DNA from: a virus
Length of the DNA: 64,000 nt
Reading direction: 5' to 3' (one strand)
IMG/VR virus record: IMGVR_UViG_3300020810_001175
Span: 20,280-84,279 of that record
The stretch's first letter is position 1; every line of letters begins with the position of its first letter. The position numbers and the translations under genes were made by a program. Positions 37,168 through 62,431 of this stretch are shown piece by piece. The notes under the pieces are model-generated. The model did no database searches, was not told the DNA's origin, and worked only from the letters and a program-made list of their open reading frames with translations.

Positions 37168-38451
37168 ATGCGTTCAATCACAATAGAAGAGTGTCTAGAA
37201 TTAATGGCAGGACTATCTGCCAAAGCAATCAATCCTGCGTTCATTGTACTGGATCGTGACAAAAAAATTATTTTCGATATTGCTAAAAAAGTTTATAAAG
37301 GTTCCGCATTAACTGATAGGCAACTAGAAGCAGTCAAAAAAATACTAATCACCAGATATAAATCACAATTCAAAATGCGAGGCATTGACCTGGAGAACAG
37401 TGTTAACACATTAAGGCAACCGTTAAGACATTTGGATAGAAGCGAATATATCAGATTGGAAGATGGATCTGCTTATGTAGAACCATATTGGTCCGGATTT
37501 ATTCCTACCAAAGTTATTGTAATAAGATTTCCGTTCAATATGACTTATACAAAAACAATCAACGAAGTTAGACGTTTACTAGGTCCTACTATTAGCAGAT
37601 ACTATGCTCAAAGATTAAAAGACAAATATATTTTACCTTACACAGAAAAAGTAACGCACAAACTTCTATCAAAATTTAAGAACAAAATCAAAGACATAGA
37701 TCCGATTCTAATCGATGTTTACAATGAATGTGAAAAAATATCAAAAAATCCAGAAAAGTTTGTGCCGGGTATATATGATTATGAGATTAAACACAGTGCC
37801 GATATAATAACTCAACACTATGTCGAATTTTTTGGAGAACCTGTTAAAGAAAATTTATGTTTGTACTATGATAGAAAAGAAAAAATGGGACTTCATTATT
37901 TTGATAACAAAGAACTAGACAGTTCCAAAAGTAATTTATCATCATTATCAAAAAAGATATTAGAACGACAGTGGCCTAGAATCAATTTAGACATAGACAA
38001 GTGGCATCTTCAACAAGTAATCGATACCATAATAGAACTGAGAAGATTTCCTTTATTGGTTGTTTTACCCAGTAATACCGATGAAGACACTCTAAATCAT
38101 CTTCATAAGACACACAAACTTTTTACAAACATTATACCTAGCGATGAAATATCTGTACTGTCAAGGTGCAAAAGCAATTCTGTTTTTGGTAAAGAATTTA
38201 ATGATTACATTAAGGACAAACAATTAAATAATTCACTTGCTAAAACAACAAAAATAGTGTATATTACAAATAAGAAGATACCAAAGCCTTTATTGACTTC
38301 TACTTGGGAACCTGAAGCAGTATTGATATGTGACAACACTAGAAATTATTCTAAGGTTGACAAATATGTGAGTAATATCGATTTACAATTACAAGTCAAC
38401 GGACAAGACAGTTTTTGGAATCAACTACACTTTGGAAGCGAAACACTATGA
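37168..38451 (+). CDS. Hypothetical protein upstream of uvsW
   Basis: 427-aa ORF with its own promoter; LTDRQ motif. Confidence 0.6.
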   Translation: MRSITIEECLELMAGLSAKAINPAFIVLDRDKKIIFDIAKKVYKGSALTDRQLEAVKKILITRYKSQFKMRGIDLENSVNTLRQPLRHLDRSEYIRLEDGSAYVEPYWSGFIPTKVIVIRFPFNMTYTKTINEVRRLLGPTISRYYAQRLKDKYILPYTEKVTHKLLSKFKNKIKDIDPILIDVYNECEKISKNPEKFVPGIYDYEIKHSADIITQHYVEFFGEPVKENLCLYYDRKEKMGLHYFDNKELDSSKSNLSSLSKKILERQWPRINLDIDKWHLQQVIDTIIELRRFPLLVVLPSNTDEDTLNHLHKTHKLFTNIIPSDEISVLSRCKSNSVFGKEFNDYIKDKQLNNSLAKTTKIVYITNKKIPKPLLTSTWEPEAVLICDNTRNYSKVDKYVSNIDLQLQVNGQDSFWNQLHFGSETL

Positions 38452-39905
38452 GATGTAAAATTATTATAAGCGACGAAGTCAATGTAAAAATTGAAGGACT
38501 GCCTGTTGAAGTGCGAAGAAAAATAGCAAACAAATTTAAATTTCAAGTGCCTTATGCTAGATATCTTCCTCAATATAAACTAGGACGTTGGGACGGTACA
38601 GTTGGTTTCTTTGGTCTAGGTGGTAATGGTTATGTCAATCATCTGGACAAGATCATTCAATATCTCAATGAAGCAGGTGTAGAAATCGAAGAAGTCGTAG
38701 ACAAAAGAGAAAAATTTGATCTAACTTTTAGTAAAGTAGACAAAAACTTTTTCGGAAATAAAACGTGGCCCAAAGGACATCAATGCGAAGGACAAAAAAT
38801 CGAATTACGTGACTACCAAGTGGACGTGATTAATAATTTTATCAAGGAGCCACAAAGTTTACAAGAAGTTGCCACAGGTGCTGGTAAAACAATTATCACT
38901 GCGGCATTGAGTAGCATATGTGAAAAGTTTGGAAGAACATTGGTTATTGTGCCTAACAAAGGATTAGTTACACAAACAGAAGAAGATTACATCAACGTAG
39001 GATTAGATGTTGGAGTTTATTTTGGAGATAGAAAAGAATTAAATCGAACACACACTATTTGTACATGGCAAAGTCTTAATGTATTAGATAAAAAATCTAA
39101 AGCAGGAGAATCTGTTTTTAGTTTAGCAGAGTTTTTAGACGGAGTAAAAACTGTTATAATAGATGAAGTGCACCAAGCAAAAGCAGAAGTTTTAAAAAAA
39201 TTACTCACACATCATTTAAAAAATTCCCCTGTTCGTTGGGGTCTAACTGGAACTGTGCCCAAAGAACAATTTGAATTTCAAAGCATCTTAGCCAGCATTG
39301 GTCCAGTTGTTAATCAAATATCAGCAAAAGAATTACAAGACAAAGGAGTGCTATCTAAATGTCATGTAAATGTTGTACAATTGGTAGATACCAACGTGTA
39401 TAAAAATTATCAAGAAGAATTAAAGTTTTTAGTTACAGACGAAAAAAGAATTGAGTATTTAGGTAAACTTGTAAACAAAATAAAATCAAGCGGTAACACA
39501 TTGGTATTAATTGATAGACTTACAGCAGGTAAAAAATTATTAGAAATCATAGATGACAGTGTGTTTATTCAAGGAGAAACCAAATTAGCAGATCGTAAAG
39601 AACAGTATGACGAAATATCTAGCAGTACTAATAAAGTAATTATTGCCACGTACGGTGTAGCCAGTGTGGGAATTAATATTCCTAGAATATTCAATCTTGT
39701 ATTGATTGAGCCAGGCAAATCATTTGTAAGAGTAATTCAATCAATCGGCAGAGGAATACGTAAAGCCAAAGACAAAGACTTTGTACAGATATGGGATTTA
39801 ACTTCAAGTTGTAAATTTGCTAAAAGACATTTAACACACAGAAAAAAATTTTACAAAGAAGCAAATTATCCTTTTACAATAGAGAAAGTGGATTGGACAA
39901 AATGA
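38448..39905 (+). CDS. uvsW: SF2 DNA helicase
   Basis: LRDYQ, ATGAGKT, DEVH, GLTGT, QSIGRGIR. Confidence 0.92.
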   Translation: MRCKIIISDEVNVKIEGLPVEVRRKIANKFKFQVPYARYLPQYKLGRWDGTVGFFGLGGNGYVNHLDKIIQYLNEAGVEIEEVVDKREKFDLTFSKVDKNFFGNKTWPKGHQCEGQKIELRDYQVDVINNFIKEPQSLQEVATGAGKTIITAALSSICEKFGRTLVIVPNKGLVTQTEEDYINVGLDVGVYFGDRKELNRTHTICTWQSLNVLDKKSKAGESVFSLAEFLDGVKTVIIDEVHQAKAEVLKKLLTHHLKNSPVRWGLTGTVPKEQFEFQSILASIGPVVNQISAKELQDKGVLSKCHVNVVQLVDTNVYKNYQEELKFLVTDEKRIEYLGKLVNKIKSSGNTLVLIDRLTAGKKLLEIIDDSVFIQGETKLADRKEQYDEISSSTNKVIIATYGVASVGINIPRIFNLVLIEPGKSFVRVIQSIGRGIRKAKDKDFVQIWDLTSSCKFAKRHLTHRKKFYKEANYPFTIEKVDWTK

Positions 39906-40720
39906 AAATAGCAGGTGCACAAATACCAGTAAGTAGAAACGTTCAAGACAACTACAACGAAATTTTAAAAGCCTGCGAATGGGCAGTAGAAAATAAAGTT
40001 GATTATCTGTTTACACCAGAAGCATCATTGAGTGGTTATGATGCTCCTAGTTTTAATATCAATACTTGTAAAGAAACAGAACAGGCAATGGAAAAACTAG
40101 TAAGTTTTGCATCTTCAAAGAACCTTGGTTTAATTATTGGAACGCTATGGTTGGACGATAAAGAAACAATCAATGGTCCATTTTTTGGAAAAAAAACAAA
40201 TCAATTGCGTTTCTATAATAAAAAAGGAGAGCACATTGGATCAACATTCAAAACAAAACTGGTATCATTTGATCAAGATTGTGAAAAGCGGAATGAATTT
40301 CCCGTTGTAGAACTTGTCACAGAACACGAAACAATCAAAGTTGGTGCGTTAATATGTAATGATCTGGTGGGTAATTATTATTCAGGCGGAGACAATCTAG
40401 CCAAAAAGTTGAAAGAAAAAAACGTCGATCTAATAATACACTCAAGCAATACTCAAAAAGATCAAGGACCTCAGGTTAAAAAAATACATGATGAATTTCA
40501 TGATGCTTGTACAAAATTTATAGCATATGCTACCAACACACCCATCATCAGTGTAGATAATCCTTGGCACATACACGGATATGAAACTGATGTAGGAACG
40601 TCTTTTACATCAGGAATTTATCTTCCAATCGATACTGTATTACAACTACCCAAAACAGGCACACACTATTTTTACTACAATACGTCTAACACAAAATATT
40701 CTTATCAGGAAGGAAATTAA
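39902..40720 (+). CDS. Carbon-nitrogen hydrolase (nitrilase superfamily)
   Basis: KIAGAQ, TPEASLSGY (Glu), KTKL (Lys), ICND (Cys) catalytic triad. Confidence 0.8.
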   Translation: MKIAGAQIPVSRNVQDNYNEILKACEWAVENKVDYLFTPEASLSGYDAPSFNINTCKETEQAMEKLVSFASSKNLGLIIGTLWLDDKETINGPFFGKKTNQLRFYNKKGEHIGSTFKTKLVSFDQDCEKRNEFPVVELVTEHETIKVGALICNDLVGNYYSGGDNLAKKLKEKNVDLIIHSSNTQKDQGPQVKKIHDEFHDACTKFIAYATNTPIISVDNPWHIHGYETDVGTSFTSGIYLPIDTVLQLPKTGTHYFYYNTSNTKYSYQEGN

Positions 40721-41229: not shown

Positions 41230-41498
41230 TGCCTAAAGCAGTCAAAAAAAGAAAACGTATTAAACAAGAAGAAATGATTTTTACTTCTCCTGATGGAGGT
41301 AAAACTGTGTATGGTCAACCATTAAATGGTAAAGGACCAAAAATATTAGTTGAAGAAACTAAAGATCCTGATTGGTATTTGTCCGAATTAGAAATTAGCG
41401 AAGTGGTAGATTACGCAAACGAAGGAAATAAAACTTTACAAATTCAGTTAAAGAAGTTAAAATTACTTTATAATTTAATAAAAGAAGATAGATGGTAA
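41229..41498 (+). CDS. Hypothetical protein
   Basis: Coupled ORF; SPDGGKTVY motif. Confidence 0.55.
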   Translation: MPKAVKKRKRIKQEEMIFTSPDGGKTVYGQPLNGKGPKILVEETKDPDWYLSELEISEVVDYANEGNKTLQIQLKKLKLLYNLIKEDRW

Positions 41499-41968
41499 CC
41501 AAAACTAACAAACTACCTTTGAAAGATATATTGGCGGCTATTGATATGAATGCCAAAAGCGTTTGGGACGAACTTTCAGATGACGATAGAAAACAAGTTT
41601 CTTTTTATTTGTTGAATAGATATGCTAGTGCTATCAAAGGAACCAAAGAACAAAAAGAATTACAAATTTTAAAAACCAACCAATATTACAATAAAAACTT
41701 TTTTACATTGAGCAAACATAAAAAACTATTGTGGTTTCTGTTGTGTATGACTGCTAGTGACAAAAAGAACATCAGATATCATGAATGGATTGGTTATAAG
41801 TTTAAAGAATCTAACAATAACAAAGCATTTAAGTTTTTAGAAAAACTTTATCCTAATAAAAAAATTGACGAATTAAGATTATTAGCAAATATTAACACCA
41901 CTAAAGAACTTAAAGAATTAGCAGAAGATTTAGGAATGAGTAAAGAGCAAATCAAAAAATTATTATGA
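41492..41968 (+). CDS. Possible clamp-loader small subunit (gp62-like)
   Basis: DILAAID, YLLNRYAS, N...HKKL.W pattern; weak resemblance plus context. Confidence 0.4.
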   Translation: MVTKTNKLPLKDILAAIDMNAKSVWDELSDDDRKQVSFYLLNRYASAIKGTKEQKELQILKTNQYYNKNFFTLSKHKKLLWFLLCMTASDKKNIRYHEWIGYKFKESNNNKAFKFLEKLYPNKKIDELRLLANINTTKELKELAEDLGMSKEQIKKLL

Positions 41969-42648
41969 TAGAAAAGTTATACCCTTGCAAATATTGTAAT
42001 GCTAAATTCGCCAAAGAAAAGACATTATCAGTACATATGTGTGAGCAAAAAAGAAGATATCTACAGAAAGATGAACGTAGAGTACAATTAGGATTTCAAA
42101 CTTTTGTAAGATTCTATGAACTGTGTCAAAAAGTTACAACACCTAAAACTTATGAAGAGTTTTGTAAATCTCCATACTATACAGCATTTGTAAAATTTGG
42201 AAGTTTTATCAGTAATGTTAAACCATTGTATCCAAACAAGTACATAGATTACGTTGTAACATCTGGAGTTAAACTTGATCACTGGTGTAGAGAAGAACTG
42301 TATCAAAAATATGCTATTGATTTGATTTTAAGAGAACGAGTTGAAACAGCCATGGAAAGATCAATCAAAACAATGATGGATTGGGGTGATGAAAAACAAG
42401 CACCATGGAGTGATTATTTTAGATATGCTAGTTTGAATAGAGCAGTTGTAGATATAAAAGATGGTAAAATTTCTCCTTGGCTTATATTGAATTGTAAAAC
42501 TGGAAAAGAAATGATGAAAAGATTTAACGATGAACAATTACAAATGGTATATGCTATAATGGATCCCAGTCATTGGACATTAAGATTTAAAAGACTACCC
42601 GCAGATATTGAAATGGTTAAAGAAGTAATCAAGGAGGCAAATTTATAA
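41965..42648 (+). CDS. Zinc-finger hypothetical protein
   Basis: YPCKYCNAKF...LSVHMC N-terminal zinc finger; GKISPW. Confidence 0.6.
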   Translation: MIEKLYPCKYCNAKFAKEKTLSVHMCEQKRRYLQKDERRVQLGFQTFVRFYELCQKVTTPKTYEEFCKSPYYTAFVKFGSFISNVKPLYPNKYIDYVVTSGVKLDHWCREELYQKYAIDLILRERVETAMERSIKTMMDWGDEKQAPWSDYFRYASLNRAVVDIKDGKISPWLILNCKTGKEMMKRFNDEQLQMVYAIMDPSHWTLRFKRLPADIEMVKEVIKEANL

Positions 42649-43214
42649 TGTTCGATATTGATATAGACTTTGCTGATAGAAATGTGTTGTTAGAAAAACT
42701 TAAACACAGAATAGCAAAATTAGACACAGAAAAAAAACATAACACAGGTGTTTACTTCACAGAAATTCCACACGACCCAGCAACAAATATGGCAACAATA
42801 GATTACGAAACTGCTGAAGAAAGAAACTATTTTAAAATAGATTGTCTCAACGTAAGCATATACAAAGATGTAAAGGATGAGGATCATTTGAATCAATTGA
42901 TGAATAAGGAACCTGTATGGGAATTGTTAGAAGCAAAAGAATTCAGCGATCAGGTATTTCATTTGAACGGTCATAATGAAATATTGAAAAGATTAAAACC
43001 GAAAAATATAGAACAACTGGCGGCTGTATTAGCAATCATCAGACCAAGCAAAAGATATCTACTAAACAAAGATTGGGATTCTATTATGAAGGAAGTATGG
43101 GTCAAGCCCACTGATGGATATTATTTTAAAAAATCACACGCAACGTCATATGCTGTGGCAGTTGTGATACACATGAATTTAATCTGCGAACAATTACAAA
43201 ACAATGACAAGTAA
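42648..43214 (+). CDS. Miniature DNA polymerase III alpha (DnaE)-like catalytic core
   Basis: DIDIDF, HNTGVY, KIDCL, AIIRP and FKKSHATSY occur in DnaE order within 188 aa. Confidence 0.8.
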   Translation: MFDIDIDFADRNVLLEKLKHRIAKLDTEKKHNTGVYFTEIPHDPATNMATIDYETAEERNYFKIDCLNVSIYKDVKDEDHLNQLMNKEPVWELLEAKEFSDQVFHLNGHNEILKRLKPKNIEQLAAVLAIIRPSKRYLLNKDWDSIMKEVWVKPTDGYYFKKSHATSYAVAVVIHMNLICEQLQNNDK

Positions 43215-43458
43215 AATAAGAAGAAGTTTAGTTAAAACATTAACCTGGAGAATAGTTGCTACTACCGATACATTTATAATTGCTTGGTTGATAACAGGAG
43301 AATGGACATGGGCCAGTGCTATTGCTGGAGTCGAAGTTTTAACAAAAATGTTTTTGTATTATGGTCATGAGAGAGTGTGGAATAAAATTGCTTGGGCTAA
43401 AGAATACAAAGAACCACACACTACTATATTCCCTTATAAAGAAGATAAACGTTGGTAA
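43204..43458 (+). CDS. DUF2061-like small membrane protein
   Basis: RSLVKTLTWR...TKMFLYYGHERVW. Confidence 0.75.
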   Translation: MTSKIRRSLVKTLTWRIVATTDTFIIAWLITGEWTWASAIAGVEVLTKMFLYYGHERVWNKIAWAKEYKEPHTTIFPYKEDKRW

Positions 43459-43824
43459 TTATTTAGGTTTTCTAACCAGTTGAACCGACTTCCTTTTGCT
43501 ACGCTTCATAGCAAGATTGCCGAGACTGGTGACTGGACCAATCTTCACTTTCACATCTTTTGTATTCATCATCATTAAAACACTACGGAATTTTTGTAAT
43601 TCTTTACGTAAAAAGATGCCAATTGGTACCATTCTATTGGATTCCCACCACCATGTTTTACATAATTCCATGAAAGTTTCTCTCGAATTGGTGTGAATTT
43701 CTTCATATATGTACATGGACGTAATGGAGTTATCTTGATTATTGATTACCCCTACATACTCTTGTCCGCCATATTCGACGACTGATATAAACGGAAAGTT
43801 CTTTTCTATGTCGTCTAACAGCAT
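43459..43824 (-). CDS. Conserved hypothetical protein
   Basis: FPFIS...EYVGVINN...WWWESNRMVPI. Confidence 0.6.
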   Translation of the reverse strand: MLLDDIEKNFPFISVVEYGGQEYVGVINNQDNSITSMYIYEEIHTNSRETFMELCKTWWWESNRMVPIGIFLRKELQKFRSVLMMMNTKDVKVKIGPVTSLGNLAMKRSKRKSVQLVRKPK

Positions 43825-44682: not shown

Positions 44683-45687
44683 ATGAATATTGTGCTTGAT
44701 ACTTTACAAACTTATCTTCCAGCAAAACGAAAACAAACACCAAGTGGATGGGTGGCTTTCAATGCTCCTTGTTGTGAGCATAACGGTACTACACCAGACA
44801 CTAGACAAAGGGGCGGACTGATTGCTAATGCCAGTGACGGTGTAAGTTTTCATTGTTTCAACTGTGGATTCAAAACCAGTTGGCGTATTGGTAGAAATTT
44901 GTCTTACAAAATGAAAAAGTTTATGCGTTGGCTTAATATGCCCGACGACATCATAACAAAATTAGCACTGCAGGTTTTACAACAAAAAACAGATACATCT
45001 GGATTTAAAGCAATAACACAACTTCCGAAATTTGAAATAAAAGAATTACCAGCAAAAGCCAAGCCCATATATGATTGGGCAGATTACAAAGCACTAGAAC
45101 CAAGTGGAGTAGATAAAGATTTATTTTCAGTGATAGAATACATTGCAGAGAGAAAACTAACACTAGATGATTATGATTTTTACTGGAGTCCTGAACCTGG
45201 TTTCAAAGACAGATTAATTATACCTTTCACATATCAATCTAAGATTGTAGGATACACAGCAAGAAAAGTTGTAGAAAGCAAAGTAAAATATCTATCCGAA
45301 CAACAACCTGGTTATGTGTTCAACACAGATGCTCAGGATGATGATAGAAAATACATTGTGGCTGTGGAAGGTCCAATTGATGCTATTGCTATTGATGGTG
45401 TAGCACTGCTAGGCAGTGAAGTAAAAGAGCAACAATCAACACTGATAAACAGTCTGGGCAAACACGTCATAGTTGTTCCAGACAGAGATGAAGCAGGTCA
45501 AAAGTTAGTTTGGGACAGTCTTGAAACAGGTTGGAGTGTGAGTATGCCTGACTGGAGTCACGAAATAAAAGACGTTAATGATGCTGTGCGTAAATATGGT
45601 AGATTGCATACTTTGTACACAATTATAAAAAACGCAGAAGATTCACAACTTAAAATAAAACTGAGGATGAAAAAATGGTTTACTTAA
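44683..45687 (+). CDS. gp61: DNA primase (T4 gp61-like)
   Basis: Zn motif PCC...HCFNCG, RLIIP, VEGPIDA and PDRDEAG TOPRIM, KDVND. Confidence 0.9.
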   Translation: MNIVLDTLQTYLPAKRKQTPSGWVAFNAPCCEHNGTTPDTRQRGGLIANASDGVSFHCFNCGFKTSWRIGRNLSYKMKKFMRWLNMPDDIITKLALQVLQQKTDTSGFKAITQLPKFEIKELPAKAKPIYDWADYKALEPSGVDKDLFSVIEYIAERKLTLDDYDFYWSPEPGFKDRLIIPFTYQSKIVGYTARKVVESKVKYLSEQQPGYVFNTDAQDDDRKYIVAVEGPIDAIAIDGVALLGSEVKEQQSTLINSLGKHVIVVPDRDEAGQKLVWDSLETGWSVSMPDWSHEIKDVNDAVRKYGRLHTLYTIIKNAEDSQLKIKLRMKKWFT

Positions 45688-45804: not shown

Positions 45805-46803
45805 ATGATAGTTTGGGGAATAACAGGAAATAATCACGATGCCAGTCTGGCTGTGATGGAATATCATGTAAAAGGTTTAACAGACAGATATGGATTGTAT
45901 GTTCATTGGGCTGGTAAGAGTTCAGACTTCAGTGGCATACCTGGTGATCCTAACCTGTGTCCAGAAATGTTAGCACACGTGAGATCAAATCCTAGATGGG
46001 CTCACCCGGCAAAAATAATTTGGTATGAAAAACCTTTTAAGAAGAGTATGCGTCAACTGTTGGCAGGACAAGGATTAAAATTTAAAGAAAATGACGTGAA
46101 GAAATTTTTACAGCGTCAAGGTATCCATGTTCCTGTTGAATATATAGATCATCATATGAGCCATGCGGCATATGGTTATTACACATCTCCATACAACAAC
46201 GCGGCAGTTGTTGTGCTAGATTCAATTGGTGAGTTTGAAACATACACAATTTGGCACGGACAAGGAGATCAATTAGAAAAGAAATACACACAAAGATACC
46301 CACACAGTATTGGTTTATTTTATTCAGCCATGACTCAACGATGTGGATTCAAAGCCAATGCAGAAGAGTACAAACTGGAACAATTGGCACAAAAAGGCAA
46401 CTGGCGAAAATATCATAGAATCATGATGGAAGAAATTATCAAAACCAGAATGCCTTTCAAGACAAGAGTTAATCTACACCGAGGATGTAATTGGTGGAGA
46501 CCAGAATTAAATTCGGAACAGGATACAGCAGATTTGGCGGCAACCACACAACACATTTTTGAACAAGTGTTGATGTGTGCCAGTTCGTGGATTCAAATGA
46601 ATATTCCTACTAATAACATTGTTTTGGTAGGAGGTTGTGCATTGAACAAGACTGCTAGAATCAAACTGGCATCGGTTTGGGATGACATATGGGTTCCAAA
46701 AAATCCTGGCGATCCTGGTTCATGCATAGGTGCTGTGTGTGCCAAATACAACAAGCACATTGACAATTCAGACAAAATGTGGTATAATAAGGACAATGGT
46801 TAA
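45805..46803 (+). CDS. Carbamoyltransferase, NodU/CmcH family, N-terminal (Kae1-like) domain only
   Basis: NHDASLA, YEKP, DHHMSHAA, DSIGE, PHSIGLFYS, EEYK, GGCALN, PGDPG. Confidence 0.85.
   Translation: MIVWGITGNNHDASLAVMEYHVKGLTDRYGLYVHWAGKSSDFSGIPGDPNLCPEMLAHVRSNPRWAHPAKIIWYEKPFKKSMRQLLAGQGLKFKENDVKKFLQRQGIHVPVEYIDHHMSHAAYGYYTSPYNNAAVVVLDSIGEFETYTIWHGQGDQLEKKYTQRYPHSIGLFYSAMTQRCGFKANAEEYKLEQLAQKGNWRKYHRIMMEEIIKTRMPFKTRVNLHRGCNWWRPELNSEQDTADLAATTQHIFEQVLMCASSWIQMNIPTNNIVLVGGCALNKTARIKLASVWDDIWVPKNPGDPGSCIGAVCAKYNKHIDNSDKMWYNKDNG
46760..46788 (+). promoter_or_regulatory. Consensus sigma70-type promoter for the helicase
   Basis: TTGACA-17-TATAAT with TG extension, ATG 7 nt downstream. Confidence 0.8.
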
Positions 46804-48241
46804 ACAGAACAAAGACTATGGATATGAGATACAAAAACTGTATCTCGAAATGATGCTGAGTGACGCAGAAACATTTGTGCGTTGCCAATCTATATTTGAT
46901 TATTCTTTATTTGATAGAAAGTTACAAGACACAGCAGACTTTGTGAACAAGTATGTGTCACAATACAATTCATTGCCAACATATGACATTGTGAACAAGA
47001 GTTGTAATGTTGATTTGAAGCCAACAGAAAATCTAACTGAAGAACATTTTACTTGGTTGCTTGATGATTTTGAAACATTTGTTAGACACAAAAGTTTAGA
47101 AAGAGCAATTTTAAAATCAGCAGATATGTTGGAAAAAGGTGAATATGGTCCAGTTGAAGAATTGGTCAAGAAGGCAGTACAGATTGGATTACACAAAGAT
47201 ATAGGTACAGATTATTTCGATGATCCAAAAGCAAGACTTATGGGACTAAAAAATTCTAATGGACAGGTCAGCACAGGCTGGGCAACACTAGATAAGAAAT
47301 TATTTGGTGGATTTAACAAAGGTGAATTGAATATATTTGCAGGTGGTTCTGGAGCAGGTAAATCGTTGTTCTTGGCAAACTTAGGTTGCAATTGGGTATT
47401 GAATGGATTGAATGTGGCGTATATTACTTTTGAATTGAGTGAAGCACTAGTGAGTATGAGATTGGATTCAATGTTAACTGATATTCCAGCAAGAGAAATT
47501 TTTAAAGATTTAGATGGTGTTGAAATGAAAGTTAAACTGTTAGGCAAAAAAGCAGGTAGATTTCAAATCAAATACATGGCAAGTGGTAAAAATGCAAACG
47601 ACTTAAGAAGTTACATCAAAGAATATGAAATTAAAACAGGTAAAAAATTAGATGTAATACTGGTAGACTATTTGGATCTTATGATGCCAATCAGTAGAAA
47701 AGTTTCTCCAAGTGATTTATTTGTGAAGGACAAATTTGTTTCAGAAGAATTAAGAAATTTATCAATGGAATTGAATGTAATCTTTGTTACAGCATCGCAG
47801 TTGAATAGAGGAGCAGTAGAAGAAATTGAGTTTGATCATTCGCATATATCTGGAGGTTTAAGTAAAATACAAACTGCTGACAACGTGTTTGGTATATTCA
47901 CATCAAGAGCAATGAGAGAAAGAGGCAGATATCAAATACAGTTAATGAAAACAAGATCATCCAGTGGTGTTGGTCAAAAGATTGATTTAGAATTTGATGT
48001 GGACAGTTTAAGAATAAGAGATCTAGCAGAAGACTCAGACAGTCAAGATTATAAAGGGTCAAGCACAATTTATAATTCATTAAAAAAGACATCTACAGTT
48101 AATGATAGTGCAGAAAAAAACACAACTGAACTTAAATTACCTGATCCTACCAAAGGTGATACAGTAAGTAGAATTGATTCAGGTAATACTGATCAAACAA
48201 AATTAAGGGACTTCTTAAAGAACCTTGATGGCGATGAATAA
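46796..48241 (+). CDS. gp41: Replicative DNA helicase (T4 gp41/DnaB-like)
   Basis: STGW, GGSGAGKS, VDYLDLM, TASQLNR, KTRSS. Confidence 0.92.
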   Translation: MVKQNKDYGYEIQKLYLEMMLSDAETFVRCQSIFDYSLFDRKLQDTADFVNKYVSQYNSLPTYDIVNKSCNVDLKPTENLTEEHFTWLLDDFETFVRHKSLERAILKSADMLEKGEYGPVEELVKKAVQIGLHKDIGTDYFDDPKARLMGLKNSNGQVSTGWATLDKKLFGGFNKGELNIFAGGSGAGKSLFLANLGCNWVLNGLNVAYITFELSEALVSMRLDSMLTDIPAREIFKDLDGVEMKVKLLGKKAGRFQIKYMASGKNANDLRSYIKEYEIKTGKKLDVILVDYLDLMMPISRKVSPSDLFVKDKFVSEELRNLSMELNVIFVTASQLNRGAVEEIEFDHSHISGGLSKIQTADNVFGIFTSRAMRERGRYQIQLMKTRSSSGVGQKIDLEFDVDSLRIRDLAEDSDSQDYKGSSTIYNSLKKTSTVNDSAEKNTTELKLPDPTKGDTVSRIDSGNTDQTKLRDFLKNLDGDE

Positions 48242-51432: not shown

Positions 51433-52523
51433 TGTAACTGTCCTTTCAACACATCAAAATATTCTTCTGTGGCATTGATGGGTATGATAAAAAATTTATG
51501 ATCATCGCCTTTGATCAAATCAAATAGTGTACCAAACTGTCCCACTATGGTATAGCCTGCTTGTTCAAACGTTGCTTTTGCTGTTGCCACAATGTTGTGA
51601 TGTTGTGTCATCAATTGTTCCTGATGCAGTATATCAATATATTTAATACAACTCAATATGCCAGGCAGACTGTAATTGTATGTGAACCCGTGTTCCCAAT
51701 CAAAATCATCTGGCAACACATCATCAATCTTTGAGTTGTACATGGTGATGCTGAGCGGAAAAAATCCACCTGTGATTGCTTTGCCCATGGTGAATATGTC
51801 TGGCTGAATGGGAGTTTGTTGCCACCCAACAAATGTGCCTGTCTTTCCGCCGCCAATAAAAATGTCGTCCACAATCACAACCACACCCTGCTCCTGCAAC
51901 TGTTTTATCTTGTTCCAGAATTCTTTTGAGTTGGGTCTCAATTGTTCACCATATGAACACGTTTCCACCATCACACACATCACTTGATTCCACTCTGTTT
52001 GATTGATATCAAAATCTCTTTTCAGTCGGATCACTTGGTCATAAGGTTTTAAAGTGTAGAAAGGATCGGTAAACAGACTGTCTCCCATGTTGTAGTTTAA
52101 AAATGTAGAGCCGTGATAACTGTTTTCAAAACACACAATTTTTGTGCGTTGTGTTTGTCCTAGCAGTTTTTGATAAGCACTGGCAAGTTTGACCGCACCT
52201 TCGTTGGCATCTGATCCACTGAGAGCAAATATACTTTTGTAGCCTGTCATGTGAAACAGAGTGTCGGACAATTGATAACTGGGTTCATTGAGATACAGTT
52301 CTTCATTCTGCACAATGCTTTCTGCTATTTCTGGTTTCACTCGAATATTGTCATACACATAATCCAATATGTCATGTCGGTCAAACCCCAATGTGAAACA
52401 ACCATAGTGCAACAATGGATCTATTATCTTCTTACTGTTGTCCATGTAACCGTACTGCCAATGAGGTTTGGCAACTGTGGTCAATCTTTGTACACCTGGT
52501 ATGAGTCCTTTAATTGATTTCAT
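51429..52523 (-). CDS. Class III PLP-dependent aminotransferase
   Basis: SGSDANEGAVKLA, SYHGST, DDIFIGGGKTG, PDIFTMGKAITGGFFPLS, HGFTY. Confidence 0.88.
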   Translation of the reverse strand: MKSIKGLIPGVQRLTTVAKPHWQYGYMDNSKKIIDPLLHYGCFTLGFDRHDILDYVYDNIRVKPEIAESIVQNEELYLNEPSYQLSDTLFHMTGYKSIFALSGSDANEGAVKLASAYQKLLGQTQRTKIVCFENSYHGSTFLNYNMGDSLFTDPFYTLKPYDQVIRLKRDFDINQTEWNQVMCVMVETCSYGEQLRPNSKEFWNKIKQLQEQGVVVIVDDIFIGGGKTGTFVGWQQTPIQPDIFTMGKAITGGFFPLSITMYNSKIDDVLPDDFDWEHGFTYNYSLPGILSCIKYIDILHQEQLMTQHHNIVATAKATFEQAGYTIVGQFGTLFDLIKGDDHKFFIIPINATEEYFDVLKGQLQ

Positions 52524-52531
52524 AATCTTAA

Positions 52532-53068
52532 TTATTGTATTTCAAACTCCAATTGATCGTATGTGATGTCATTGGAATCTTCAAATTGTTTTTTGGATTC
52601 TAAACTTACTGTGATCGGCAAACTCATATCCACAAAATTTTGAACAGATATCTTTTTAGTTTCGCCTTTGTGAAATGTTTTATCAAGAGTGTGTGTTTGA
52701 TCATTAATCTTTAGCGTTACACAGTATTGATCAGTTAATTTTTCACTGCCTTGTACAAAATTTTTTCTATTAAAATTTGTGGTGCATATAGAACTGTTGC
52801 TATCAAACACAAAGTCCACTTCGGATTTTTCTTTGATTTCTCCAAAAGAAATATCATAAATTAAACTCACTGAGTTCACACTGTCTGAATCGAATAATAT
52901 TTGATCACTCAATGTTAAAGGTAAATTTTCTTCAGCATCATTAATATTTTCAAACACAACAGCATCGTTAATCATCACAGTAAGATTGTTTTTGTATTGA
53001 TGCTTTTCTAAACTGAAATAATTTTTGCCTTTTTCTTTTGGACAACGCAGTGTGAAAATTTTATTCAT
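52532..53068 (-). CDS. Hypothetical protein
   Basis: 178-aa ORF overlapping the upstream gene. Confidence 0.55.
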   Translation of the reverse strand: MNKIFTLRCPKEKGKNYFSLEKHQYKNNLTVMINDAVVFENINDAEENLPLTLSDQILFDSDSVNSVSLIYDISFGEIKEKSEVDFVFDSNSSICTTNFNRKNFVQGSEKLTDQYCVTLKINDQTHTLDKTFHKGETKKISVQNFVDMSLPITVSLESKKQFEDSNDITYDQLEFEIQ

Positions 53069-53687
53069 GTTCTATGCTGTCCTTAAACTTTAACAATGCT
53101 TCTTCAAAACTTAGATGTTCGCCTGGCAATTTCAACAGAGTTAGTGATAAAGTCCATCTGTGTTGTGTGGGATCTGGATTGTGCGTGTTGTGTAGTTGTC
53201 CAACATTTAATATGCTTGGCTTATTGATCACTGCCTGATGAACCAGTTCTATATTGTTTTCATCTGCACTGTAACATTTGTAACAATCAATGTCTGGTTC
53301 TATACCAGCCTCTTGAAAACTTTTGTTTACTTCGGTTTCATCGTGATTTATTTCTATATAGTTGCAACCAGATTTTAACTTCCACCATCTTGTGGTACTA
53401 GTTTCAGGACCCCATGTAAAATTAAGTTTACAAGCATCTCGTTGTCCAGGAGGTATCACTGTATCGTTATGAATAGGTATCGCGCCTCCATTGGGTTTGG
53501 TATAAAATCCTTCAATCACATTTGATATTTTTAAATTGTGTTGAGCCAACCATTTGAACAATTCGTCGGGCAGTTCATCCGGATTAACATACATCAAAAA
53601 ATTATCTGTTAAACCTTCAGCAAAACATTTTGGTTTATTGATAATAAATGGTAATTTGATGTATCTGTGATATATGTTGAAATTCAT
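53061..53687 (-). CDS. Putative cupin/2OG-Fe(II)-type oxygenase
   Basis: IPIHND, KLNF, LNVGQLH, RWTLSL; start set at MNFNIY, 7 nt after TAAATA. Confidence 0.55.
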   Translation of the reverse strand: MNFNIYHRYIKLPFIINKPKCFAEGLTDNFLMYVNPDELPDELFKWLAQHNLKISNVIEGFYTKPNGGAIPIHNDTVIPPGQRDACKLNFTWGPETSTTRWWKLKSGCNYIEINHDETEVNKSFQEAGIEPDIDCYKCYSADENNIELVHQAVINKPSILNVGQLHNTHNPDPTQHRWTLSLTLLKLPGEHLSFEEALLKFKDSIEHE

Positions 53688-53900
53688 TGTAAAATATTTA
53701 TAGACTGCGAAAACAACAGGTTGTAGGTATGGTTTTGATGCTGATAACCGCACATACATCAACACTGTGACTGGCCCGTGTATTGACGTCTATGACGCTT
53801 TAAAACACTGTTTTATGGTACTGTAGATGCCTATATGTTAGTGCAACAGCACCAGTCAAAATACTGCTGTTATCAACCAGGTCAAGATAAGTAATTTCAA

Positions 53901-54584
53901 ATGTCCAACGAAATTCAAAACAAAACAATCAATCTCCGTCAGTGGGAAGAAGGCAATGAGCCTCCTTTCAATCCTGAAATGGAAGTAGAGATCAGAGACT
54001 TTGTTGGTGTGTTTAAAAAAGCATACACAAAAGAATGGTGTGATCAAGCAATTAAATATTTCGATGAAATGACTAAGATGGGTTTTGGTAGATCCATACA
54101 AGAAATTTCAGGAGCACCTAGACATCTTAAAGACACACAAAATTTTAACACCACAAGATTGTATTCGCAAGGAGATAATCTTTTGAGTATAGTAGGAGTG
54201 CCTGGAGTACAGAATAAATTTTTAGATACATTTTGGGCGTGTTACAACGGAATATACAGACATCAATTTTCATCTTTGCAAACAGAAGGTGCACCACAAA
54301 TGGTGTATGAAATGAAGATTCAAAGAACAGCACCTGGTGAAGGATATCACGTGTGGCATTGGGAACAGAGCAGTAGATCAGACACCACAAGGTTTATGGT
54401 GATACAGGTATTTCTTAATGACGTGGAAGATGGTGGTGAAACAGAATTTTTATATTATCCTAGAAGACTCAAAGCAGAAGCAGGAACATTATTAATTTTT
54501 CCTGGAAATTATACTCACACACATAGAGGCAACCAGCCTTTATCTGGACCTAAGTACACAATTAATACCTGGCTAGAATTTTAA
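53901..54584 (+). CDS. 2OG-Fe(II) oxygenase
   Basis: GYHVWHWE, FLNDVEDGGETEF, FPGNYTHTHRG, KY. Confidence 0.88.
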   Translation: MSNEIQNKTINLRQWEEGNEPPFNPEMEVEIRDFVGVFKKAYTKEWCDQAIKYFDEMTKMGFGRSIQEISGAPRHLKDTQNFNTTRLYSQGDNLLSIVGVPGVQNKFLDTFWACYNGIYRHQFSSLQTEGAPQMVYEMKIQRTAPGEGYHVWHWEQSSRSDTTRFMVIQVFLNDVEDGGETEFLYYPRRLKAEAGTLLIFPGNYTHTHRGNQPLSGPKYTINTWLEF

Positions 54585-54612
54585 GGCTGGTTACTGGTTT
54601 AATTTAAATCAA

Positions 54613-54732
54613 TTAATTTTCAAAACTTTTTACGGCTTTTTCAACAAATTTTTCTAACCTGTTGTATATCCTAATAAAAAAATTTTTAATTGAAGACGTC
54701 ACGAATGTGACTATTTGTTTGACTTTTTTCAT
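54613..54732 (-). CDS. 39-aa amphipathic peptide, not in the ORF track
   Basis: SD AGGGAG and an upstream TAAATA; MKKVKQIVTFVTSSIKNFFIRIYNRLEKFVEKAVKSFEN. Confidence 0.55.
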   Translation of the reverse strand: MKKVKQIVTFVTSSIKNFFIRIYNRLEKFVEKAVKSFEN

Positions 54733-54829
54733 TGCCTATTCTCCCTTATTTGAGTTGTTATGTTTGCCTTATTCGCAAGTTATTTACATCAGTATCGATA
54801 AAATTTATCTGCTACTATTGTTTTTATAA

Positions 54830-55690
54830 TTAAGATATAAATGCATGGACAACTTTTTGTGCTAACATTTTCCAGTTAGCAAGTTCTCCAATTTCTTGAA
54901 TATGGTGTGCTTTGGTTCCGTCATGATAAGAACAACGTATCTGCATCATTCCTTTTTCAGGTCTAGCATCTGCGGTAACGCCTATTGCTGTTTGACAATC
55001 TCCATTAACTAATTCTAAAACATATCGTTCTGCCATTAATTCAATCGTGGGCCATTCTAATATTTGAGGATTCCATATGTCTTTCATTTTGATGTCATCG
55101 CTTCTTATCTGCACAACAACTTTTCCTTGTCCTGCGGCAGGCAACAATTCTGTTTCGGGCATCACAGTGTGTTGTACTTGTACGTTTAATCTATCTAACG
55201 CACACTTTGCCATAATGATTCCATCAACTTCTTGTTTAGCAATTAAATCTATTCTTGTTTGAATATTTCCTCTTATAGGCACAAACCGCAAATCAGGTCT
55301 TTGGTCTGATAACATTTTTGCTCTACGTGGAGCACTTGTTCCTATTCTGTATCCGCTTGGAATAGAATCAAAATTTTCGAAAGGTCCAATCAACACATCA
55401 CGTCTGTCACCTTGCTCCCAGACACATCCTAATAGTTCTGTGCCGTCTGCTATTTCCGTTCCAACGTCTTTGGCACTGTGTATCGCACAATCTATTTCAC
55501 CTGAAAGTAACTTGTCTTCTATGGCAGAACAAAAAATATGTTTGCCACCCATTTCATGAATAGGAGTTGTTTGATCTATATCGCCTTGACTTTTTATTTG
55601 AATTAGTTCATAAGGTTGAACCAAACCTGACGCGGCTCCGTCTGCTTGTCTAATGGCGAGAGGTGATCCTCTAGTTCCTATCTTTAACAT
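54830..55690 (-). CDS. hemC: Porphobilinogen deaminase (hydroxymethylbilane synthase)
   Basis: IGTRGSPLA, GD, HSAKD, GTSAPRR, RGNIQTR, PAAGQG, AER, GDCQTAIG (cofactor Cys). Confidence 0.93.
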   Translation of the reverse strand: MLKIGTRGSPLAIRQADGAASGLVQPYELIQIKSQGDIDQTTPIHEMGGKHIFCSAIEDKLLSGEIDCAIHSAKDVGTEIADGTELLGCVWEQGDRRDVLIGPFENFDSIPSGYRIGTSAPRRAKMLSDQRPDLRFVPIRGNIQTRIDLIAKQEVDGIIMAKCALDRLNVQVQHTVMPETELLPAAGQGKVVVQIRSDDIKMKDIWNPQILEWPTIELMAERYVLELVNGDCQTAIGVTADARPEKGMMQIRCSYHDGTKAHHIQEIGELANWKMLAQKVVHAFIS

Positions 55691-55695
55691 TGAAC

Positions 55696-55884
55696 TTATG
55701 CTCTATTCCAAGAAATAGGAGTGCCGTTTTCATCAAGAACAAGATCACCTGTGTCTTTGTACTGAGCCACCATGATGCCTTTTCCTCTACCTTTGCTGAT
55801 CCATTTGCAAGGTTTGATTTCTCTTTCGTTATAATATCTTATGGCATGATGTGTTATTATTCCACGAGCCTTTACTCCAGCCAT
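55696..55884 (-). CDS. Small hypothetical protein
   Basis: 62-aa ORF in the hemC operon. Confidence 0.55.
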   Translation of the reverse strand: MAGVKARGIITHHAIRYYNEREIKPCKWISKGRGKGIMVAQYKDTGDLVLDENGTPISWNRA

Positions 55885-55885
55885 T

Positions 55886-56032
55886 TTATTTTCCTTGTCC
55901 TACTTTAAACTTTAAACTGCGTTTTTTGTGTTTGTTCATTGAACTCATTTTGCACTTACTTTTCTTTCCTGCTTGACTGGTTTTTTTTGGAACCGAAACG
56001 TGTTCAACAAATCCTTTTGCTAATTTTGCCAT
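55886..56032 (-). CDS. 48-aa very basic peptide, not in the ORF track
   Basis: MAKLAKGFVEHVSVPKKTSQAGKKSKCKMSSMNKHKKRSLKFKVGQGK fills the gap between neighbours, leaving 1 nt on each side. Confidence 0.65.
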   Translation of the reverse strand: MAKLAKGFVEHVSVPKKTSQAGKKSKCKMSSMNKHKKRSLKFKVGQGK

Positions 56033-56033
56033 A

Positions 56034-56252
56034 CTATCTACCTAACTTTTTGCTTCTACCCAAAGGTAATGATTGGACTTTGAAAAATTCTTCACCTTTT
56101 TTGGTTGTCCATTCAATCTCAACTTCTTTGGCTTTGCTGGATGATTGATAACTCTTGACTGCTCGTTTGAAGCCGTTGGCTTCGATCTCTTTGACCTGTT
56201 CACCTTCAGGAGCAGTTCTGTCCGTGAATATAAATTTTCTTTCTTTTGCCAT
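56034..56252 (-). CDS. Small basic hypothetical protein
   Basis: SD AAGGAG and TAAATA upstream. Confidence 0.65.
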   Translation of the reverse strand: MAKERKFIFTDRTAPEGEQVKEIEANGFKRAVKSYQSSSKAKEVEIEWTTKKGEEFFKVQSLPLGRSKKLGR

Positions 56253-56305
56253 AAAGACTCCTTATTTTTTGTTGTATTTATTAAATGGTAGTATTATTTT
56301 GGTCC

Positions 56306-56334
56306 TTGACATTCGGCCCCGTGTGTGCTATAAT
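56306..56334 (+). promoter_or_regulatory. Consensus sigma70-type (early) promoter
   Basis: TTGACA-17-TATAAT with TG extension. Confidence 0.8.
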
Positions 56335-56356
56335 CAAGCAACTTAAGGAGAACATT

Positions 56357-56602
56357 ATGTATTATAGAATAAAATTTATATTAAAAGATTTGTTTTTGAC
56401 CCCTTTTAAGATGTTTTGGAAACAGATCACAATATCAGTCATACTGTCCATAATTTTTACATTGTTGGTCAAACCAGATATATCAGTATTTTTAACTATG
56501 GTTGGTATTTGTTTTTTAGCATCATTAATGATCACAATGGCTAATGACAATTATAACCGTCAAAAAGAAAAAATCTTAGACGCTCTTAAAGAGAAAAAAT
56601 AA
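56357..56602 (+). CDS. Small two-TM membrane protein
   Basis: SD AAGGAG; two hydrophobic segments and a charged tail. Confidence 0.65.
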   Translation: MYYRIKFILKDLFLTPFKMFWKQITISVILSIIFTLLVKPDISVFLTMVGICFLASLMITMANDNYNRQKEKILDALKEKK

Positions 56603-56949
56603 TGAGTGAAAAAACGAAACAAATATTAGAAAATTTAAGAACCATTGTTCAGAAAGAACCGGTGGAGGATCCAACCACACAAGGAGCAATTGCCAGCAAC
56701 ATGGGTGGCGATAGAATATACGGAAGTATCAATAACACTATTCATTTAATTAATGCTGACGGATCTAGATACAAAGGCAAAATAGACAAACGAAGAATCA
56801 CAGTAAAAGGTATAGACGGTGCTAATTTTTTCAGTCATGTGTACGAAACAGCAGATGGTAGATGGTTTGATAGAACTGGATTACCTTGTGCTAAACCGAC
56901 CACTCTAGTTAAACAATCTGAAAACGAGATTGTTGAAACTGATAATTAA
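56602..56949 (+). CDS. Hypothetical protein
   Basis: Coupled ORF. Confidence 0.6.
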   Translation: MSEKTKQILENLRTIVQKEPVEDPTTQGAIASNMGGDRIYGSINNTIHLINADGSRYKGKIDKRRITVKGIDGANFFSHVYETADGRWFDRTGLPCAKPTTLVKQSENEIVETDN

Positions 56950-56953
56950 TTTC

Positions 56954-57214
56954 ATGATTACTTTAGAACAGTACAATGATATGCCCGAGTACTGGGACTA
57001 TCAACGCAAGATAGAATTCAACAAAGAAAAATGTCGCAAGGCTTGTGAGAACATACAAGAAAATTTTGGAGAGTTGTCCAGCGAAGCAGACGTAGATGAT
57101 ATGTTTGAAATGATGTGGCACCAGATTGAAGCAGAAGATTATGAAGATCCACCTTTGGATTGGGTACCAAAAAATCCTGCACTGAGATTAGAACACGAAA
57201 CATACAATAAATAA
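56954..57214 (+). CDS. Acidic hypothetical protein
   Basis: ORF; start at MITLEQ. Confidence 0.55.
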   Translation: MITLEQYNDMPEYWDYQRKIEFNKEKCRKACENIQENFGELSSEADVDDMFEMMWHQIEAEDYEDPPLDWVPKNPALRLEHETYNK

Positions 57215-57218
57215 TTGC

Positions 57219-57386
57219 ATGACACACACACTAAAATACGGAACCAACGAGCCTGTTTATAATGCAGGTAACTTTCAAGAATATCATTATGAGCTGGAAC
57301 ATATGGAATGCGAGTGGAAAATAATTTACGGCACATTTAATTTGGTAACAGCATTCACATATCCTTGGATTCAAATACGCTATTGA
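57219..57386 (+). CDS. 55-aa hypothetical protein, not in the ORF track
   Basis: AATAAATA 5 nt before ATG; MTHTLKYG...WIQIRY. Confidence 0.5.
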   Translation: MTHTLKYGTNEPVYNAGNFQEYHYELEHMECEWKIIYGTFNLVTAFTYPWIQIRY

Positions 57387-57456
57387 CAAACAGTCAAAAA
57401 CGTGTTAAATTAATCACTATGTATTAAATGCATACCTGCTATGCTAAATACATATA

Positions 57457-57502
57457 CGTTCAGGCATCAGCCCGGAAGTAGGTTATACCGAAGGAACGCA
57501 CC
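57457..57502 (+). ncRNA. Glutamine riboswitch (glnA RNA motif)
   Basis: P1 CGTTC/GAACG, P2 GGC-ATCA-GCC, GGAAGTA junction, P3 GGT-TAT-ACC, GAAG; followed by SD AAGGAGG and ATG. Confidence 0.8.
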
Positions 57503-57524
57503 TAACTTTAACAAGGAGGGTGAT

Positions 57525-57719
57525 ATGAATAGATTCAGTCATCTACTTAAAAAATACACAGAAAATAGTGTGCTAGCCAAAAAGGCAATGACGCTGTTTA
57601 GTGCTAGAAAAGAAGTAGATATCAATGCCAATGGCACACAAGGATACGTGGTAAAACACGGTCCTAATGCAGGCAAGGCATTGGCACACAGAGCAGTCAA
57701 ATCTACAAATAATTGGTAA
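57525..57719 (+). CDS. 64-aa basic protein downstream of the glutamine riboswitch
   Basis: SD AAGGAGG at 57513; MNRFSHLLKKY...KSTNNW. Confidence 0.75.
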   Translation: MNRFSHLLKKYTENSVLAKKAMTLFSARKEVDINANGTQGYVVKHGPNAGKALAHRAVKSTNNW

Positions 57720-57983
57720 TTATTTTTTAGTAAACAAAAAAGACCTGCTGGCGGAACTGTATCTAAAATTCAAGTTTCGCCAGTGCGGTTCACTCCAAAT
57801 TGTTTTTTCCCAATGTCTACAAGCCTGATGTGTCCAGCGTTCTAAAGCCACTTTGATTTGATATCTATTGTGAGGCTGTTTGAGTGCTTCATCCATGAAT
57901 CGCACCAACTCCACATCTGAAAAGACGTCTTCTCCTTCTAGGGTGTGTCGGATGGTTTTTTTAGTGTGTCGAGTGGATCGCAT
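57720..57983 (-). CDS. Hypothetical protein
   Basis: 87-aa ORF with an upstream TAAATA. Confidence 0.5.
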   Translation of the reverse strand: MRSTRHTKKTIRHTLEGEDVFSDVELVRFMDEALKQPHNRYQIKVALERWTHQACRHWEKTIWSEPHWRNLNFRYSSASRSFLFTKK

Positions 57984-58019
57984 ACTAAAAGTATATTTAT
58001 TCAGCCGATAAATATTGTT

Positions 58020-59327: not shown

Positions 59328-59328
59328 T

Positions 59329-60869: not shown

Positions 60870-60872
60870 TAA

Positions 60873-61631: not shown

Positions 61632-61652
61632 AAGATTAACCCCTGCCTAATC

Positions 61653-62396: not shown

Positions 62397-62431
62397 GGAA
62401 GGCATTGACCGTGTCTGAAGTGGTCAATACT
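62345..62431 (-). ncRNA. Candidate small structured RNA
   Basis: Minus-strand TTGACA-17-TACAAT promoter (62466-62438) followed by three hairpins whose G-U pairs work only on the minus strand. Confidence 0.45.

Follow-up and report, generated by a model that had tools for sequence, protein, structure and literature searches.

The closest described system is the split polymerase of the T4-like (group 2.2) jumbo phages. According to Iyer et al. 2021 (Viruses 13:63, PMC7824862), these phages carry a family B polymerase together with a "phage-specific minimal version" of DNA polymerase III (Pol III) alpha. In our literature search this was the only paper to treat the split mini-enzyme: the terms "polymerase III", "DnaE" and "split" do not occur in a 2026 review (PMC13282480), "DNA polymerase" does not occur in the PA5oct omics paper (PMC7318152), and the Sharanji paper mentions a "DNA polymerase III DnaE" gene in passing. 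Here we describe a gene for a 188-residue protein, located at 42648..43214 on the forward (+) strand of a stretch of 64,000 nucleotides that we call the window. The window covers positions 20,280 to 84,279 of the IMG/VR record IMGVR_UViG_3300020810_001175, which is 84,279 bp long, is judged 24% complete and belongs to an uncultured marine lineage.

The gene very likely encodes the C-terminal unit of the "minimal DNA polymerase III alpha" of these phages, an enzyme made from two genes without inteins. Below we call this unit, which binds metal and template, the C-half, and the product of the other gene the N-half. The C-half in the window is real and conserved, and it is neither new nor stand-alone. 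It is not stand-alone because the half of the palm that holds the GRGS loop is missing from it, and related phages encode this half in another gene far away. Enzymes of this kind have been in print since 2021, and GenBank records already carry annotations of both halves; the window gene adds a member, not a concept. What we add is detail: a corrected numbering of the catalytic residues, a conserved position of the cut (80/80), a natural fusion, the ranges lost in comparison with DnaE, and statistics on the neighbourhood.

Motifs and fold of the C-half

The open reading frame (ORF) begins MFDIDIDF. A Shine-Dalgarno sequence, AGGAGG (42632..42637, +), is found 10 nt 5' of the ATG, within the 3' end of the preceding zinc-finger gene. 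There is an in-frame TAA 10 codons 5' of the ATG, and no other start codon between the two; therefore, the start of the C-half is firm.

Five motifs resembling those of DnaE, in the same order as in DnaE, had been noticed in the initial annotation, and all of them are present in that order: DIDIDF at residues 3-8, HNTGVY at 31-36, KIDCL at 63-67, IIRPS at 130-134 and FKKSH at 160-164. The counterparts in E. coli K-12 DnaE are DFDVDF (401-406), KHAGGVV (510-516, matched by eye), KFDFLG (553-558), LFRPG (637-641) and FNKSH (756-760). This correspondence is far beyond chance.

The register of the first motif decides which residues are catalytic. The codons of D3-I-D5-I-D7 (42654..42668, +) align with E. 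coli D401-F-D403-V-D405, so that D3, D5 and D7 equal D401, D403 and D405. The catalytic residues of E. coli DnaE we take to be D401, D403 and D555. This makes D3/D5 the catalytic pair, in place of the D5/D7 first given, while the claim that all three catalytic aspartates are kept stands. The third is D65, within the codons of K63-I64-D65 (42834..42842, +), which correspond to E. coli K553-F554-D555 in the hhalign register. Further downstream, the codons of R132-P133 (43041..43046, +) correspond to R639-P640 of the finger motif, and those of K161-K-S-H164 (43128..43139, +) to N757/K758-S-H760 of FNKSH.

To describe conservation we used an alignment of 67 sequences, consisting of the window protein and 66 near-full-length representatives with 30-59% identity. 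Six residues, D3, D5, K63, D65, R132 and P133, are invariant in 67/67 sequences, and D7, H31, G34, Y36, K161 and H164 are kept in at least 90% of them.

Profile comparisons and the predicted structure place the protein among the family-C polymerases. It matches PHROG 11778, "DNA polymerase", with an E-value of 7.9e-62, residues 2-182 covering positions 7-194 of the 197 in the profile. With hhalign, a profile of the 67 C-half sequences matches DnaE 541-642 at E 4.3e-5 and a probability of 69%. The AlphaFold2 model has a mean predicted local distance difference test score (pLDDT) of 96.8 and a predicted template modelling score (pTM) of 0.88. In a Foldseek search of the PDB the ten best matches are all Pol III alpha, with E-values from 4e-4 to 0.15 and template modelling (TM) scores of 0.40-0.46 relative to the query. 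VIA-align superposes the model on 16 family-C polymerase entries, that is, DnaE of Thermus, Mycobacterium and E. coli, and PolC, at Z 6.4-9.8 and a root-mean-square deviation of 3.2-4.3 Å over 170-184 of the 188 residues; the best unrelated entry follows at Z 3.1. The check proposed in the initial annotation, whether the protein superposes on the palm and fingers of DnaE, succeeds with family-C polymerases only.

In E. coli DnaE the superposed region is residues 400-784. The window protein has one sixth of the length of DnaE and is without the PHP, thumb, clamp-binding, HhH, OB and tau-binding parts, in line with the original remark that PHP, clamp-binding and OB domains are absent. That long segments between the motifs have been deleted is likewise correct. 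Between the counterparts of D405 and H511, in the thumb region, the window protein has 23 residues compared with 105 in E. coli, so that about 82 are missing, and between those of P640 and K758, in the fingers, it has 27 compared with 117, with about 90 missing.

The C-half is common in jumbo phages. By tblastn the gene was detected in 96 phage records; in each the match spans 80% or more of the query and its identity stays under 60%, and all 96 are jumbo phages of the PA5oct, Atu_ph07 or 121Q/RaK2 type. The identity to the window protein is 52% in the PA5oct-like Pseudomonas phages, 50-51% in Atu_ph07 and Phosso, and about 39% in the 121Q/RaK2-like phages. Several of these records label the gene DNA polymerase (III alpha), which agrees with the earlier expectation that short DnaE-like genes might already be annotated in related jumbo phages with no demonstrated function. 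In metagenomic data, at least 7988 clusters at 90% identity match the C-half (E<=0.001; 8000 scored), many of them from ocean samples; at 50% identity there are 427 clusters, and the matches include 178 IMG/VR stretches. This breadth, together with the invariant catalytic residues, bears out the idea of a purposeful miniature rather than a broken fragment.

Two further observations concern individual copies of the gene. A 12.7-kb contig from another sample (L009, IMGVR_UViG_3300044491_000800) carries a 100% identical C-half gene and the same UvsW-to-DnaB gene order, and therefore the same phage recurs elsewhere. In Atu_ph07 (NC_042013.1; locus L004, 5001-5561), the C-half coding sequence in RefSeq starts at 5067, which is 66 nt inside the tblastn match, so that the DIDIDF strand and its catalytic aspartates are left out of the annotated protein. 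An earlier Met is present in the open frame, and the annotated start is therefore probably wrong.

The other half of the palm

In a palm of the Pol-beta type, the DxD strand must be preceded by a glycine-serine loop that binds the nucleotide. In E. coli DnaE this loop is GRGSG (361-365), and it is followed by ...FERFLN (388-393). The window chain opens M1-F2-D3, that is, two residues ahead of the DxD strand, and because the ORF starts two residues before the first Asp there can be no GRGS loop in it. The chain is thus without the GRGS/helix half of the Pol-beta-like palm (DnaE 361-393) and, judging from its sequence, cannot be a complete nucleotidyltransferase alone. The late start is general, as the DxD motif is preceded by 1-17 residues in 67/67 C-half homologues.

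The missing half is found elsewhere in the genomes of relatives. We checked four complete cultured phages, 121Q, PAC2, Atu_ph07 and Phosso, and each of the four has one short match to PF07733 (NTPase/palm) above the curated cut-off (37-46.5 bits compared with 23.9). The corresponding ORFs encode 169-180 residues, with ...GVGRGSSVASY...EFL(K/N) directly before the stop codon. A profile built from them matches DnaE 323-393 (E 2.7e-6), and they end where the window protein begins. The distance between the N-half and the C-half is about 31 kb in 121Q, about 43 kb in PAC2 and more than 180 kb in Atu_ph07 and Phosso. In 121Q and PAC2 both halves are already annotated as pieces of a polymerase, and the N-half is located near a clamp-loader gene.

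The same picture is seen in uncultured phages. The N-half is present in at least 595 IMG/VR stretches, and the counts given here rest on the 80 loci that were kept. In 80/80 of them the N-half ORF stops 0-6 residues past EFL[KR], in 73 exactly there, and the GRGS loop is invariant in 40/40 N-halves. In none of the 80 loci is there a C-half within 900 nt downstream of the N-half; two motif matches in this region turned out to be the N-half's own YDLDIDEF. Among ten large contigs with an N-half, seven also have a C-half (E<=1e-47), and among those at least 90% complete the fraction is 3/4. In one of these genomes, G010 (328 kb, flanked by terminal repeats), about 97 kb separate the halves when counted across the ends, and 230 kb in the other direction. 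A family B polymerase (PF00136) is found above the cut-off in 5/5 tested relatives with both halves.

In cyanobacteria, too, a family-C polymerase is made from two genes that lie far apart, there with DnaE split by an intein. We considered this arrangement and rejected it for the mini-enzyme. The cut of the mini-enzyme lies inside the catalytic palm, and the two junctions, 0-6 residues past EFL[KR] in 80/80 N-halves and 1-17 residues before DxD in 67/67 C-halves, are too short to accommodate intein halves, which excludes that the chains are rejoined by protein splicing.

There is also a natural fusion of the two halves. Among the 150 listed representatives at 50% identity, P0243 is a protein of 375 residues that consists of an N-half, about 10 residues and a C-half. 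Residues 1-180 make up the N-half, with ...EFIK at its end, and residues 191-371 are a C-half that aligns to residues 3-173 of the window protein with 37% identity. PF07733 spans the junction (residues 97-207, 59.6 bits). In total, three fused clusters (P0243, P0271 and P0272; 375-376 residues, metagenomic) were found among 16 matches of 206-657 residues. Compared with the window protein, the fused mini-enzyme is one chain with a linker of about 10 residues, and its C-terminal 185 residues align to the window protein. The fused form is rare, with three clusters compared with at least 7988 clusters of the separate C-half.

Further, we predicted the structure of a complex between the window C-half and the N-half of G010, the closest complete relative with both halves (its C-half is 58% identical). 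The interaction prediction score from aligned errors (ipSAE) is 0.90 in three of three runs, compared with 0.00 for the best of three controls; a score of this level is reached by 58 of 80 solved complexes and by 2 of 110 mismatched pairs. The contact agreement between the runs is at least 94%, and the partner has a pLDDT of at least 82. The predicted interface includes C-half residues 2-9 against N-half residues 138-151 (VWGVGRGS).

From this a mechanism can be proposed. The window unit carries one strand with two metal-binding aspartates (D3, D5), another with K63 and D65, and a shortened finger module (R132-P133, K161...H164). In relatives, a separate protein of about 175 residues, which ends exactly where the window protein begins, holds the part of the palm that binds the nucleotide (...VWGVGRGSS...EFLK). 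The two chains would then dock non-covalently, with the VWGVG strand pairing with the DxD strand, to form one active core of about 365 residues. We infer that there is a physical heterodimer and that it has DNA polymerase activity.

The initial annotation proposed something different, namely a self-sufficient 188-residue nucleotidyltransferase or primer-extension enzyme with the Pol-beta fold that needs no other piece of the palm. The ORF is indeed intact and well conserved and keeps all three acidic residues, there is no partner gene on the 84-kb record, and one near-complete relative has a single half, although there it is the N-half that is kept. However, a chain that starts two residues before the first Asp cannot contain the loop and helix of DnaE 361-393, a partner ending exactly at the junction is present in 4/4 cultured and 7/10 large uncultured relatives, and the halves exist as a natural fusion in three protein clusters. 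We therefore regard a stand-alone enzyme as very improbable.

Even less can be said for a catalytically dead remnant with a structural or regulatory role, for instance in binding DNA or parts of the host replisome, to which we assign next to no likelihood. The enzyme is extremely reduced, and our literature search found no activity shown for it; but no variation is seen in the three acidic residues, in K63 or in R132-P133 among 67 sequences with identities as low as 30%, nor in the GRGS loop of 40/40 N-halves.

Some results weigh against the assignment to a two-gene Pol III alpha. The first group concerns the window protein itself. The fingers family PF17657 reaches 21.2 bits, below the cut-off of 22, and PF07733 gives no match in the C-half, so that at the level of sequence families Pfam alone does not place the protein. 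A search of PDB sequences with the window protein gives an E-value of only 0.7, though on the correct segments of DnaE. The predicted complex is a likeness and not a demonstration of binding, its partner was taken from another phage, and the high score may reflect the model's memory of intact DnaE structures. Such memory is possible because the two chains correspond to one chain of the solved DnaE structures. Further, no enzymatic or genetic test of the split mini-enzyme was found in the literature search.

The second group concerns genomes in which one half is absent. G008, the IMG/VR record behind L109 (359 kb, 94% complete), has a split N-half, and no C-half is detectable in it even with the 67-sequence profile at E<=10. 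Two incomplete records with an N-half (38% and 43% complete) are also without a C-half by the same search. In the 84,279-bp record of this phage the N-half is absent: PF07733 at E<=10 and a profile of four N-half sequences both give zero matches, and an hmmsearch with filters off against 1241 six-frame segments has a best E-value of 0.42. The conserved 114-residue gene that comes after the N-half in 121Q was not found on the record, and neither was a match to the family B polymerase (PF00136). It should be kept in mind that the record is only 24% complete, and for this reason the absence of the N-half neither supports nor refutes the split reading. In a fragment of this size the absence is expected, and the phage's own N-half is presumably located in the roughly 76% of the genome beyond the contig.

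Related contigs do not place the N-half closer. None of the five longer IMG/VR contigs with a close C-half has a split N-half, and a DNA search of the window region 52000-64000 against 50 of the 70 listed contigs with an N-half gave no match. Weak N-half matches in two of the five contigs belong to a different gene, which encodes an unsplit DnaE-like protein of 595 residues.

This 595-residue gene is an observation in its own right. It is present in G004 (IMGVR_UViG_3300023087_000014; ~12.0-12.8 kb; L089:139-1926, minus strand) and in G003, lacks the PHP domain, and stands directly 3' of the DnaB helicase gene; it matches PF07733 with 149.7 bits and PF17657 with 56.9 bits. Both contigs are marine and also hold a C-half of the 188-residue type, and thus have two family-C polymerase relatives each. 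No unsplit gene of the 595-residue type was found in the window.

Gene neighbourhood and possible roles

The C-half gene is part of a replication module. The order of genes leading to it is UvsW-like helicase, carbon-nitrogen hydrolase, a gene for 168 residues, one for 89 residues, one for 158 residues, a C2H2 zinc-finger gene and then the C-half. It is followed by a DUF2061 gene, a gene for 121 residues on the other strand, a gene for 301 residues, primase, half a carbamoyltransferase and the DnaB helicase. To see how general this is, we compared 91 related loci (80 from IMG/VR, 4 cultured, 7 from large contigs) by local tblastn.

The upstream border of the conserved module is the UvsW-like superfamily 2 (SF2) helicase (38415..39905, +; Pfam ResIII/DEAD/Helicase_C, and synteny). 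Directly after it comes the carbon-nitrogen hydrolase (39893-40720, +; PF00795, E 1.9e-10), which is found in only part of the related loci. The 158-residue protein (41492..41968, +) belongs to PHROG 11758, of unknown function, and the zinc-finger protein (41965..42648, +; 227 residues) belongs to PHROG 11058 and is a conserved neighbour. In agreement with the translational coupling noted in the initial annotation, the zinc-finger gene overlaps the C-half gene by 1 nt (TAATG) and the gene for the 158-residue protein by 4 nt (ATGA).

Downstream, the DUF2061 gene (43204-43458, +; PF09834, E 7e-23) encodes a predicted membrane protein of 84 residues and shares 11 nt with the 3' end of the C-half gene. 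Only some of the related loci have this gene, and in two of them it is found upstream of the C-half. The gene for 121 residues (43459..43824, minus strand) has no Pfam family, but in 80/80 loci with at least 1 kb of downstream sequence it is found on the reverse strand. The DnaG-type primase (44683..45687, +; Toprim, Pfam Toprim_2) and the DnaB-type replicative helicase (46730..48241, +; Pfam DnaB_C) are present in 54/54 and 52/54 loci, respectively, with at least 5 kb of downstream sequence. Between these two lies a gene for 332 residues that has only the N-terminal domain of a carbamoyltransferase (45805-46803, +; PF02543, E 2e-33); this half carbamoyltransferase was found in marine relatives and not in the four cultured phages. 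The order of UvsW, primase and DnaB is shared with PAC2, 121Q and Atu_ph07, which is the replication context of the T4-like (group 2.2) phages.

The initial annotation had also suggested that the neighbours possibly replace the missing domains of the polymerase. More generally, the zinc-finger and 158-residue proteins could be subunits of the mini-polymerase, either replacing domains or acting as accessory DNA-binding parts beside the N-half. A zinc-finger homologue is located upstream on the same strand in 75/75 loci where 2.7 kb or more of upstream sequence is available, cultured jumbo phages included, and the three window genes overlap as described. However, neither product resembles the missing half of the palm (hmmsearch with filters off, E about 9), and the zinc-finger gene abuts the C-half gene in only 5/75 loci, one of which is the 100% identical contig, while the others have an insert of 0.15-1.9 kb. 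The translational coupling of the two genes seen here is local, since direct adjacency is this rare. The model of the zinc-finger protein (pLDDT 92.1), a zinc finger with a helical body, has no informative fold match: the best Foldseek E-value is 0.69, and the best VIA-align Z is 4.4, with 0 of 48,161 chains at Z>=5. Further, the whole block from UvsW to DnaB is syntenic, and co-location need not mean a complex. That the two proteins stand in for the missing half is contradicted by these data, and that they are subunits at all is improbable.

The neighbourhood may still hint at the role of the two-chain enzyme. Its synthesis should be short-range because there are no thumb, clamp-binding or proofreading parts. 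One possible role, which we put forward tentatively, is that of a low-processivity second polymerase that works with the primosome, extends primers or fills short gaps, and hands over to a clamp-bound family B replicase. This role is favoured because the C-half is found among UvsW, primase and DnaB, and the N-half near the clamp loader in 121Q and PAC2.

About equally likely, and so itself doubtful, is that the same two-chain enzyme is used for repair or recombination-dependent synthesis, such as gap filling or lesion bypass, and not for primer extension at the fork. The C-half gene is near UvsW in the window, PAC2 has an annotated UvsY-like recombination mediator next to its UvsW gene, and the lack of thumb, clamp-binding and proofreading parts is as expected for short-patch synthesis; but primase and the DnaB helicase are equally close, and the position of the N-half near the clamp-loader gene in 121Q and PAC2 also speaks against this role.

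By analogy, the primer-extension role can be developed into a picture of the whole replisome, which we consider rather unlikely as it stands. The T4-like jumbo phages, abundant marine ones among them, might run a two-polymerase replisome. The split mini Pol III, whose active site would come together only once both chains have met, would sit on the primosome of primase and helicase as a dedicated primer extender or gap filler, much like Pol alpha or B. subtilis DnaE, and pass the DNA on to a clamp-bound family B polymerase. Its division into two genes would in that case serve as an assembly switch and not be an accident of gene structure.

Comparison with known polymerases

On the basis of its sequence, the mini-enzyme would be the smallest known version of the core of the bacterial replicative polymerase, with two chains forming the active site. 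Should it be active, it sets the lower limit for family-C catalysis, and many giant phages then carry a second polymerase beside the T4-type replicase, given the number of matching clusters, many of them from ocean samples. For the window, the annotation should be corrected to the C-terminal unit of a split polymerase with the catalytic residues D3/D5/D65 and a partner expected off the contig.

What the window protein has in common with bacterial DnaE (E. coli 2hnh, T. aquaticus 3e0d, M. tuberculosis 5lew) and with PolC (3f2b) is the C-terminal part of the Pol-beta-like palm together with the core of the fingers. The superposition on E. coli DnaE has Z 9.2-9.8, and the shared motifs are DxDxDF, KHxxGV, KxDxL, RP and FxKSH. 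The main difference lies in how the palm is made. In DnaE it is one chain, whereas in the mini-enzyme a cut separates FLN from the DxD strand and two proteins supply the pieces.

A possible functional parallel is offered by DnaE of B. subtilis, described in PMC3664799 as the primer-extending partner of PolC. The likeness would be one of function only: in both cases a family-C enzyme would serve as an additional polymerase, linked to primase and helicase, and pass the DNA to the main replicase. However, the B. subtilis protein is full-length.

The closest match is to the C-terminal Mg2+- and template-binding unit (PHROG 11778) described in Iyer et al. 2021. The window protein agrees with it in size, in starting at the DxD strand and in its catalytic residues, and it shares with the split minimal Pol III alpha the phage clade and the neighbourhood of UvsW...primase-DnaB. 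There is no difference of kind. The window copy is set apart from the others by its uncultured marine lineage, the absence of its partner gene from the fragment, the overlap with the DUF2061 gene and the zinc-finger gene that abuts it.

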